A DNA stretch of 59,034 bases from a virus (Duplodnaviria > Caudoviricetes), in the IMG/VR virus record IMGVR_UViG_3300034388_000038, positions 1-59,034 of that record; one strand, written 5' to 3'. A program made the position numbers and the translations under genes. The notes beneath the pieces are model-generated. The model did no database searches. It had not been told where the DNA came from and saw only the letters and a program-made list of their open reading frames with translations. Of this stretch, positions 29,801 through 32,800 are shown piece after piece; positions within the stretch are counted from its first letter, which is position 1; each line of letters opens with the position of its first letter.

Positions 29801-32800
29801 TTCCTCCAGAGCAAAGGCGTCAAGGTTAACTTCGTCTCGATCACGGGTACGGACAAGATCAATGGCTTCGTCGATGGTGGGGAAATCTACCTGAACGTCG
29901 GCGCCAAGGCTCCGCATCTCTTCGTCCTCGGCCACGAACTCGGGCACCTGGCGGACAACATGAACGCCAAGGAAGCCAACGCGTGGCGCGCCACCATGCG
30001 GGATAAGTTCCGCATCCTCGATACCGAAGAGTCCATGGACGCCATCGGCGAACTGGCTACCAGCGAGAAGTTCTGGAAAGACCTGATGAACGGCCTGGCT
30101 GAGAAGTCCGATCCGACCACCGCTCGCCGCATCATGGATAAGGTTCTCGACGTCCTGACTGTCGTGGCCGACGCCCTCGGTGGCAACGCCAAAGAGGTAC
30201 GCAAGCAGCACAAGGAATTCCAGAAGATCAGAACGCAGGCGATCAAGGCGCTGAACGAAGCGATCCAGGTTGGGACTGTGGCCGGGGAGGAAGTGCAGTT
30301 CTCCATCGAAGATAAAACAAAGCGCAGCCTTGAAGTTGCGGCGATGTTTGATAGTATCGTTCAAGAGGTCAACAAACCAAAGGAGGCAGCTCGTGGCCCA
30401 GTTGTTCAAGTCACTGTACCCGAACCCGGAGTCCCCGCAGGAGCTGGGACAACAGGTGATAGCGCTGAGTCACGAACTCGCGAAGCGCAGGATGCAATCT
30501 TCACAGACCTCGGAACCGCAGCCACAGCCTTCCGAGTCGCAGAGTCTGCCGTCCAGCTAGAGGACCTGTGGAGAGACGCCCCGGAGATGGTCGACTCCAT
30601 CTTCGAAATGGAACGCGATACTGCCAACGGCGTCGATAACTTCGACAAGCAGGCCATGGTGGAGATTGCCAACCGCCTGCGCGCGCTCGGCTACGAAATC
30701 CCAGCCAACCCAGAGATCGCCTTCGATGGCACGGTCGGTCAGTTCTCCGATCAGTGGGTACGTCTGTTCTTCCCTGCCCTGGCAGGGGTGTACCGCCAAG
30801 CTGGTCCACGTCTGGGGCTGACTGAGGATCGCTGGGAACTCAACGACATGGTCCAGTACACCCCCGAGACTGAGTCGGATACGGTGGATGCCATCAGCAA
30901 GGCCCTTGGCAAAGACCCTGAGATTCAGTTCTCTATCTCCGACGATGTCTCCGACGCGGCTCGGTCTTCGCTGAGCGCGGCCAAGAAACTCGGCACTGGC
31001 ATCAAGGACATGATGAAGAATCCGAAGGCCGGATGGGACGCCCTGCGCTACGAGGCCATCAAGATCATCATTGGCATGATGCCGCTCAACCAGCTGCGGG
31101 ACGGCGCTGGGTATCTCTTCGACCGCCACGGGATCACAGTCAAGGTCGGGAACAAGTTCCACTCTGGCAATCCGCTGGTGGTCTACGAGCGCATGATGGG
31201 TGAGTTGGTCTCCGAGCGTAACAAGATCGCCAGCGACATGGCGACGACTCTCAAGGCCATCACGGGTAACCCCGAGAACGAAGCGCTCTTCGGCGAAGTG
31301 GCGACGGACATCTCGTATCTTCAGATGGACCCGCGCAAGCGCATGGACGAATACCACGCTGGGGGCTGGATACCGGAGAGCGCCGCTGAACTTGGTCCGC
31401 AAGCGCGCATCGAAGCAGCGCAGGAAGCATGGAAGAAAGCCGGCATGGAGAAGTCGACCGGCCTGACCTACTCGCAGGCGTACAAGGAAGCGTCCAAGCA
31501 GTACGCCCGCCTGACTCCTGAGTTGAAGAAGGTCTATGACAGCGTGGCCATGCAGCTCACCAGCCTGCGCGATGCGCAGCGCGATGCGTTCATCCAGAAG
31601 CAGTACGACCTCGGGAACAAGCTGGTCGATGACTACGCCAAGGACATCACCGCGGAGATCATCAAGGCCGGCGGCACACAGGCCCAGGCGGAGTCGTATC
31701 TGACCAAGCTGCGTGGTCCTCAGATGGAAGTCGATCAGGCGGTTGCTGGTCTGAGCCAGAAGATTGGCGACCTGACCACGCTGGTCATCGCCACCCAGAC
31801 CGAGACAGCCAAGGCCGCAGCCTCGGCGACCGCTGCGTACAAGAAACTCCACGGGGTCTACATCCCCTTGGCTCGCTTTGGCGACCACGTTGTCCGGGTG
31901 ACCAACGACAAGGGCGAACTGATGGAAGTCCGCCACTTCGAGAATACGTTCGAGCGAGACCTGTTCAAAGACGAAGCCATCGCAGCCGGGCTCAAGGTCG
32001 AGATGTTCGTCAAGCCGGACTACGCCGTCAATCCGAAGGACATCCCGGACGCCTTCACCAAGCAGTACAGCGCAGCGACCGACGCCATCTACGAGCGGAT
32101 GCTGGCTCGCGAAGCGGAGCGACTGAAGAACAACGAGATTACTGAGGACGACTTCAAAGAACTGGAGCGGGCGCTGAAGGCACAGCAGACGGCGCAGCAT
32201 TCCATGATGTACCACGTCTGGCTCTCGACCCTGCCCGAGACCAGCGCCATGAAGAACTCCATCAAGCGTAAGAACACCAAGGGCTACAGCCAGGACATCA
32301 GCCGGGCCATCGCAGACTACACAGTTCGCCATGCCTCGTACGCTGCGCATACGCGCTACGACCATCTGCTCGGGGGCGTCATCACCGACACCCAGGAGTC
32401 CCTGCGCAAGCTGGCCAAGGACAACACGACCGACACCAAGTACGAGATGAGCGTGCTGAATTCGCTGCGCTCCCGCCTGACGCACCACGAGAAGACGGAA
32501 GGATCGAGCTGGCTGGCGCAGAAGCTGGCCTCTGCCTCGACGATCTGGTACATGTTTTCCCCGTCTGCCTACTTCATGCAGCTCTCGCAGATCGGCATCG
32601 TGGTCGCCCCGGCCCTCTCCGCCAAGCACGGCGCGGTCAAAGCCACGGCAGCACTGGCCCGGGCAACGAAGCGCGCGATGGCGTCCGATCTGGATACCGA
32701 GAAACTTACGGACGAATACCTGGGCAGCACCGGCCGGCCGGAAGACCAGAGCGTTGCCTACGTAGCGCACATGTTCCACCAGCGCGTGACGGCCGAAGAC

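Follow-up and report, generated by a model that had tools for sequence, protein, structure and literature searches.

A candidate overlapping gene beside a family-supported one in the linkers of a giant phage virion gene

Results

The window analysed here is the whole of virus record IMGVR_UViG_3300034388_000038 (Duplodnaviria; Caudoviricetes), 59,034 bases long and 99% complete by CheckV. Its plus-strand structural block, with a terminase at 9315 and the major head protein at 14852, closes with a giant gene at 26849-34177 (+) that, according to the list of open reading frames (ORFs) and its translation, encodes a 2442-amino-acid multi-domain virion-module protein. We call this the host gene, and its reading frame the host frame. 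Two short ORFs lie inside it on the same strand, both in the +1 frame: nested gene 1, which with its ribosome-binding site (RBS) occupies 28552-28688, and nested ORF 2 at 30393-30560, the main subject of this report. ORF 2 lies downstream of the codons for HELGH, a putative zinc-peptidase (HExxH) motif at 29933-29947 (+; residues 1029-1033 in the translation), and of the QFSI codons at 30296-30307 (+; residues 1150-1153), a motif found at a module boundary. For the middle of the host protein we found one relative among 15 billion predicted proteins. This relative, P0002, is 2620 amino acids long, colinear with the host protein, 49% identical over the whole length and alike at both the N- and the C-terminus, and the giant ORF is therefore real and conserved.

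ORF 2 opens with a GTG at 30393 and runs for 55 codons to a TAG at 30558-30560, giving the translation VAQLFKSLYPNPESPQELGQQVIALSHELAKRRMQSSQTSEPQPQPSESQSLPSS. Its frame is identical to that of the ORF at 28563-28688 in nested gene 1. Upstream of the GTG lies a Shine-Dalgarno (SD) sequence, AAAGGAGG, at 30379-30386 (+), followed by a 6-nt spacer, CAGCTC. A preliminary description of the window had reported these letters and the shared frame, and both hold on direct reading. ORF 2 has what an overlapping gene needs for initiation, namely an open frame, a start codon and an RBS at working distance. There are three copies of AGGAGG in the 7.3-kb host gene, and two of them sit 5-6 nt before +1-frame start codons. 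The 60-nt segment at the ORF 2 GTG has a predicted fold of -8.6 kcal/mol, among the weakest 3.5% of 801 such segments of the host gene; at six true gene starts, the host gene's own included, folds range from -5.4 to -11.6 kcal/mol.

We examined base composition by codon position. Across the whole host gene, G+C content at the first, second and third positions of host-frame codons is 0.65/0.46/0.74. The ORF 2 stretch gives 0.77/0.61/0.45 in the host frame and, when re-read in the +1 frame, 0.61/0.45/0.77, the normal pattern. Expected values for third-position G+C (GC3) and third-position A (A3) were obtained by resampling codons from the amino acids, with codon usage taken either from other genes or from the remainder of the host gene. 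Over ORF 2, host-frame GC3 is 0.446 against 0.74-0.75 expected (z -5.0 to -5.3) and A3 is 0.36 against 0.08-0.11. Over 30299-30530 the corresponding values are 0.44 against 0.74-0.75 (z -6.1 to -6.5) and 0.33 against 0.09-0.11. The local loss of host-frame codon bias claimed at first reading is thus borne out, and lies beyond chance.

To score the frames against each other we used two models. By codon likelihood in 150-nt intervals, the +1 frame comes out ahead of the host frame in 92 of the host gene's 2392 intervals, located at 28493-28652 (maximum 20.9), at 30317-30416 (maximum 14.2) and, as a minor peak, at 29060-29075 (maximum 4.7); in 23 other genes it is ahead in 12 of 8759 intervals. 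The second, phase-specific model finds host-frame triplets that resemble the -1 phase of a real gene, which means that the +1 frame is coding-like. The two best such segments in the host gene are 28568-28687, with a score of 20.4, and 30386-30484 (+), with a score of 15.4, which begins 7 nt before the ORF 2 GTG. The best segment in 22 other genes reaches 10.6. When the whole host gene was resampled synonymously, 0 of 1000 replicates reached 15.4 (maximum 11.0), and the amino acids of segment 30386-30484 alone predict a phase score of -8.0. ORF 2 therefore carries an alternative-frame codon and phase signature above the genome background. Thirteen alternative-phase segments in 23 genes score at least 7, and only the two host-gene segments just named come with an SD of at least 6 nt before an in-frame start and an open ORF; one other, a four-codon segment, has GGAGG.

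Two genes elsewhere in the window drew attention in these scans. The best phase segment outside the giant gene (score 10.6, 21 codons) lies in the gene at 42879-43583 (-); it has an in-frame ATG 4 nt in and no SD, and it may reflect overlap with the neighbouring ORF 42283-42972. In ORF 55820-56902 (-), six intervals have a +1 frame that outscores the called frame (maximum 8.9), and there are AGGAGG-plus-ATG sites at 56842, 56775 and 56628. This may point to an incorrect gene model or to several overlapping genes at that place.

The stronger of the two host-gene signatures belongs to nested gene 1. It has an AGGAGG at 28552-28557, a 5-nt spacer and an ATG at 28563 that opens 41 codons (28563-28688, +). 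Its peptide matches the small-protein family phrog_2423 (E 9.3e-7), and a six-frame search of the record returned it as the sole match to that family (E 8.2e-8), the only copy in the phage. It aligns convincingly with six annotated stand-alone genes of 49-63 codons, found in Ralstonia phage RSB1, in two phages of Burkholderia and in three uncultured ones, and shares with them residues M1, P2, G21, P23, K25, Q26, A27 and S33. The phase segment 28568-28687 matches the ORF to within 5 nt at its start and 1 nt at its end. In the host frame, conservation with P0002, in an otherwise variable linker, peaks exactly over the phrog_2423 core motif. Judged by this family relationship, nested gene 1 is a real gene in the +1 frame, and it accounts for its own codon signature. 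The family of this small gene is older and widespread, which makes the host frame the overprinted reading in this linker. PADLOC, Pfam, PHROGs and NCBIfam gave nothing for nested gene 1 beyond phrog_2423. The preliminary proposal that linkers of the giant protein carry small out-of-frame genes stands for nested gene 1; ORF 2 shares with it the frame, SD, phase and low structure, and their +1-frame compositions also agree (G at third positions 0.58 in ORF 2 and 0.59 in nested gene 1, with second positions poor in G).

A number of observations weigh against ORF 2 being a gene, and we set them out in this and the following paragraphs together with the explanations to which they lend themselves. 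In the host frame, AAAGGAGG is the last base of a Pro codon followed by K-E-A codons, the SD being the preferred-codon spelling of K-E-A, and the letters of the GTG come from an R-G pair. These five residues (K1178, E1179 and A1180 for the SD, R-G for the GTG) are all invariant in P0002, so the host frame alone could keep both signals. The window holds 35 copies of AGGAGG, about half of them intragenic without a known gene start, several of those near a start codon. Taken alone, the SD and start codon of ORF 2 are at chance level. The real AGGAGG-led RBSs of this phage all precede ATG, never GTG. The codon signature also fits ORF 2 imperfectly. By maximal-segment analysis, A/T-rich host third positions extend over 30308-30547 (+; 80 codons, A+T at third positions 0.57, A3 0.34), beginning 85 nt ahead of the GTG, and the phase signal ends at 30484, 76 nt short of the stop codon; because the one starts early and the other ends early, the signature, unlike that of nested gene 1, is not co-extensive with its ORF. 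Moreover, any run of codons with G/C first and A/T third would score high in the phase model, for example a Gly/Ala/Val/Pro linker written in rare A/T-ending codons.

These points suit a reading with no gene at all, in which the cluster of A/T-ending codons at 30308-30547 and the SD-like AGGAGG belong to the giant gene itself. A rare-codon, low-structure stretch past a domain boundary could slow translation or even it out during folding of the HExxH module, or could simply be tolerated in a linker, and the open +1 frame and GTG would be by-products of a Gly/Ala/Pro/Val-rich host peptide that seldom makes +1 stops. Rare-codon clusters follow domain ends, and internal SD-like sequences pause ribosomes. 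The extent of the A/T-rich segment, which starts well ahead of the GTG and spans conserved host sequence, is better explained in this way than by a gene, and other low-complexity Ala/Pro linkers of the host gene, at 28982-29215 and 26888-26995, are also lowered in GC3. Those linkers, however, are rich in third-position T, with A3 of only 0.10-0.17, and the (Ala-Pro)n-coding repeat at 29159-29230 is likewise T-rich and not A-rich at third positions. The only A3-rich (0.34-0.39) low-GC3 regions in the host gene are the two that have an SD and a +1 start, one of which is a proven nested gene. Linkers do not have such a cluster as a rule, since GC3 is normal in the one at the second QFSI motif (around 30926). 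What this reading leaves unexplained is a coincidence: the two strongest phase anomalies of the genome are its only two intragenic sites with a strong SD and a start in the right frame. We regard the absence of a gene as the main rival explanation, although an unlikely one.

The length of ORF 2 gives the same reading some support. The stop-to-stop run around it (30255-30560) has 101 codons, the second longest of 74 in that frame. We shuffled synonymous codons within the region, which keeps the host peptide and the regional codon use, and the +1 frame stayed open over all 101 codons in 10% of permutations (P 0.10) and over the 55 codons of ORF 2 in 28% (P 0.28). Openness is at chance given the host peptide, and ORF 2 has no excess of length given the host protein and codon use. 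Single-genome ORF-length tests for overlapping genes (PMC6188560) follow the same logic as our permutation, asking whether an alternative-frame ORF is longer than synonymous or codon permutation allows. By a test of that type ORF 2 does not stand out; what speaks for it instead are its codon phase and its start signals.

Ahead of the GTG the +1 frame is already open, from 30258 on, and this, with the SD-like element, could suggest a programmed +1 frameshift, in which ribosomes would slip into the open run 30258-30560 under SD-like stimulation and make a shortened HExxH-module protein that ends in a new tail. In prfB and dnaX, an internal SD element has such a stimulating effect on frameshifting. 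The region lacks a slippery heptamer, and neither a stop nor a hungry codon is suitably spaced from the SD; furthermore, the coding-like phase begins at the GTG and not where the open run begins. Nested gene 1 has its own ATG and the MP N-terminus typical of its family, and initiation is accordingly the mode used in this gene. A frameshift is thus very improbable.

Two further causes of the signature were considered and rejected. An antisense gene does not qualify, as no minus-strand ORF in matching phase covers 30386-30484 (frames checked by hand). Nor is there a sequencing frameshift: contigs from three metagenome runs agree without indels, and the host frame aligns with P0002 through the region.

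We searched for relatives of the ORF 2 peptide. It has no homologue in Pfam or PHROGs, tblastn against 50,697 phage records found nothing, a word-indexed search of 5.8 billion proteins gave 0 candidates (as it did for nested gene 1), and PADLOC gave no hit. The sequence is also absent from the ESM Atlas. The lack of homologues, which counts against a gene, is one of several features that would fit a relic, a once-independent small gene absorbed by the giant ORF, as nested gene 1 was, that is no longer translated or useful and whose signature is a fading footprint. In overlapping genes, genome-typical codon usage is usually taken to mark the older frame, and here the genome-typical phase is in the +1 frame and not in the host frame. 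A GTG start where the real AGGAGG-led genes use ATG, and a phase signal spanning only 33 codons, point the same way. Against a relic, host third positions evolve fastest and, under no selection, should have regained a GC3 of about 0.75 over the divergence from P0002 (49% identity), an argument which assumes that the linker predates the split from P0002, as the aligned flanks suggest. Nor would one expect a relic to keep an intact, perfect SD at the optimal spacing, an open frame and a start region without structure, although the host frame could still hold the SD. We therefore consider a relic improbable.

A special case of a real gene would be that ORF 2 and nested gene 1 are paralogues, ORF 2 being very diverged and shortened at its N-terminus. 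Both peptides are predicted as helix, Pro-containing turn and helix, with PQE and IALS in ORF 2 where the family has PQK and IALS; the two share the frame, the host gene and a similar composition; and the best hhalign pairing sets ORF 2 residues 1-11 on helix 1 and the KPQ turn of phrog_2423. That pairing, however, has a probability of 0.17% and an E of 0.35 over 11 columns, and the motif match requires two indels. ORF 2 showed no match to phrog_2423 at E <= 10, BLASTP gave no alignment at E <= 100, and when 1116 six-frame segments of the window were ranked with the family's hidden Markov model, the ORF 2 run did not appear among the best 25. Family membership, which is recognised by an MP N-terminus and a G-K-P-Q-K-Q-A-V-A / A-L-S core, does not extend to ORF 2. 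Such a kinship is a long shot.

We used the relative P0002 to ask how the +1 peptide would fare under the substitutions seen in the host frame. P0002 was compared as a protein. At least 18 of 54 aligned +1 positions must differ, five of them consecutive in the loop, which counts against ORF 2. Simple +1 compatibility with P0002 was unremarkable, with ORF 2 at percentile 0.68. The positive control, nested gene 1, reached only 0.78. Helical hydrophobic moment compared with synonymous permutations gave P 0.12 for ORF 2 and 0.32 for nested gene 1, again as positive control. We draw nothing from the compatibility and moment tests, as neither singled out the validated nested gene 1. The best achievable +1 BLOSUM ratio given the P0002 substitutions is 0.71 for ORF 2, compared with 0.57 in intervals of matching host identity and degeneracy; the nominal P is 0.002, from 455 overlapping intervals that amount to only about 23 independent blocks. 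This substitution pattern favours conservation in the +1 frame and is a point against the reading without a gene.

Further searches were made with the host region. Neither blastn nor tblastn against phage records returned anything. Scans of IMG/VR for relatives or for P0002 DNA gave 91 pattern matches and 0 relatives, a scan of JGI metagenomes for P0002 DNA, with patterns that fit P0002 exactly, gave 316 pattern matches and 0 relatives, and phmmer against 1.84 billion representatives returned P0002 alone. The phage is present in three sediment-metagenome DNA runs with one differing base over 7.3 kb (30069 A>C), and this single variant provides no diversity for a test of selection. Among RNA runs, none is listed as carrying the stretch. 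The variable position 30069 is A in the window and C in the contigs of runs X1 and X3. Translated by hand, it falls at the second position of host codon 1074, where the window has a Lys that P0002 keeps unchanged and the contigs would read Thr. Contigs of the metagenome runs break at the (Ala-Pro)n-coding repeat 29159-29230, which was skipped as a repeat in read mapping.

Structure was predicted from the single sequence with AlphaFold2. The ORF 2 peptide is predicted to form helices at residues 2-8 and 15-38 followed by a disordered tail, with a mean predicted local distance difference test score (pLDDT) of 72, a maximum of about 91, a predicted template modelling score (pTM) of 0.42 and 10 residues at or above 90. 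One control +1 peptide from the same gene is predicted mostly as coil (pLDDT 63.5, pTM 0.18, 0 residues at or above 90). Co-folding ORF 2 residues 1-40 with host residues 940-1150 and 1213-1350 scored 0.04 against a mark of 0.34, a result that counts neither way on binding. ORF 2 has no lipobox or signal sequence.

The preliminary description had also proposed an internal promoter, TTGAAG-16-TAGTAT with a TG extension, after the QFSI motif. The letters are there, at 30330-30357 (+): TTGAAG begins 23 nt after the QFSI codons, downstream of HELGH, and the -10-like TAGTAT at 30352-30357 is preceded by TGA. They do not support a promoter. The site has 8 of 12 matches, and four such sites occur in the host gene against 2.9 +/- 1.7 in shuffled sequences; with the TG required, there is one in the host gene against 0.15 in shuffles. 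A stricter scan, requiring at least 9 of 12, found 0 sites in the host gene. The hexamers at 30330-30357 do no better than chance as a sigma-70-type promoter with its hexamers 16-18 nt apart, for which the consensus may not be that of the phage's bacterial host.

The host protein is modular. Residues H1029, E1030, G1032 and H1033 of the HELGH motif are invariant in P0002. The HExxH module passes no family threshold; the nearest is Pfam Peptidase_M48, below threshold at E 0.079 and 13.2 bits against a cut-off of 20.3. The C-terminal part, residues 1666-2405, resembles giant phage proteins of unknown function (phrog_11358, phrog_30335 and phrog_22591). The QFS motif recurs at host residues 1360-1362, and the two QFS(I/V/L) motifs (30296-30307 and 30926-30937) are module boundaries of the giant protein. 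Between its two motifs P0002 has an extra module of about 200 residues (alignment columns ~1220-1420), and there is none in this phage. The motifs may be recombination joints or processing sites. Upstream in the structural block, the terminase large-subunit ORF at 9315-11732 (+; 805 aa) has an N-terminal PhoH-like match (phrog_32482, E 1.7e-31) that precedes its terminase match.

Discussion

We lean, if only a little, towards ORF 2 being a genuine overlapping gene with internal initiation, given that a neighbour bearing the same signature is demonstrably one. Under this explanation, ribosomes would initiate internally at the GTG on the late structural mRNA, steered by AAAGGAGG in a weakly structured stretch, and the A/T-rich third positions of the host frame ahead of the GTG would hold the initiation region free of structure. 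A separate promoter would not be needed. The product would be a 55-residue peptide whose first ~38 residues would fold as a short and then a long helix joined by a Pro-rich loop, while the last ~17 would be a polar, disordered read-on through sequence conserved in the host frame (IFTD.GTA.TA) to the first +1 stop. The host protein at this place, a variable Gly/Ala/Pro/Thr-rich linker (residues ~1183-1212), would tolerate the codon choices that the +1 frame demands, and selection on the +1 peptide would be the cause of the signature.

As to what the peptide does, the preliminary description had suggested a partner of the neighbouring domain, an antidote, a chaperone or a superinfection-immunity factor. 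This finds no backing in PADLOC, Pfam, PHROGs or NCBIfam, where ORF 2 has no hit. In particular, we do not favour an antidote to the HExxH domain, as nothing speaks for it. The idea of a domain-specific partner fares no better with nested gene 1, whose relatives stand alone beside quite different neighbours: lysis genes precede the one in RSB1, and others follow a coat gene or a NUDIX gene. Because these neighbourhoods, although varied, are often late or structural, our committed guess is that the ORF 2 product would be a small helical protein, expressed late, that accompanies the structural module.

The stand-alone occurrence of those relatives with differing neighbours makes the capture of small genes by a growing giant ORF a better fit than a domain-specific partner. 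In its general form, this would mean that the giant virion gene grew through small pre-existing genes between modules, which survive as translated +1 genes, namely nested gene 1 and ORF 2, the latter as an orphan or a diverged phrog_2423 member. We put this forward tentatively, as a doubtful but possible history. If it is true, linker-embedded genes would be a recurrent and unannotated coding layer, and disordered linkers would partly be the shadow of older genes.

The window offers a calibrated case, with one nested gene proven by its family and a second ORF that has the same statistical signature and no family. If ORF 2 is real, codon-phase scans combined with SD detection can find such genes in single genomes, some of the "disordered linkers" of giant virion or polyvalent proteins exist due to an underlying older small gene, and the view of the evolution and modularity of giant proteins changes. 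If it is not real, the locus shows how a rare-codon cluster and an SD-like motif can mimic a gene even beside a true one. Since gene callers never report out-of-frame nested ORFs, small proteins hidden in giant phage genes would be missing from every catalogue.

Nested +1 genes are known in phages, for example Rz1 in Rz and the overlaps of phiX174. Rz1 in Rz, in the lambda-like spanins, is likewise a small gene lying wholly inside a larger one, in the +1 frame, with its own SD and start, and it is translated by internal initiation on the same late mRNA. Rz1 itself is a lipoprotein and complexes with the protein encoded by the gene around it. ORF 2 differs in lacking a lipobox or signal sequence and in lying in an inter-domain linker of a 2442-aa virion-module protein, and an interaction with the host gene's product is known only for Rz1.

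Overprinted genes of small phages and viruses, such as phiX174 B, K and E, are reviewed in PMC8227390. The likeness is that two frames are read from one stretch, one of them with atypical codon usage, and that the less constrained product is often disordered. There the new gene usually lies inside the old one, whereas here, on the codon evidence, the small +1 frame looks native and the giant linker overprinted. Initiation-site ribosome profiling finds out-of-frame internal small ORFs in bacteria (bioRxiv 10.1101/511675). Those ORFs are likewise short, with an internal SD-plus-start in a frame other than that of the annotated gene; they were found experimentally and mostly lack conservation or a codon signature, while ORF 2 has a strong codon-phase signature and is known from sequence alone. 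A literature search at the level of abstracts, which does not prove absence, gave no report of genes lying within the linkers of giant virion or polyvalent proteins of phages.

The closest comparison is within the window. ORF 2 is like nested gene 1 in its host gene, its +1 frame, the AGGAGG 5-6 nt before the start, its position in a linker, its phase and composition, and a predicted peptide resembling a helix-turn-helix. Nested gene 1 has an ATG, homologues and a co-extensive signature, while ORF 2 has a GTG, no homologue or family, and a signature over its first 31 codons only. What is new relative to the known systems is the setting, small genes within the inter-domain linkers of a giant virion gene, and in nested gene 1 the evidence clearly makes the small gene the older of the two.

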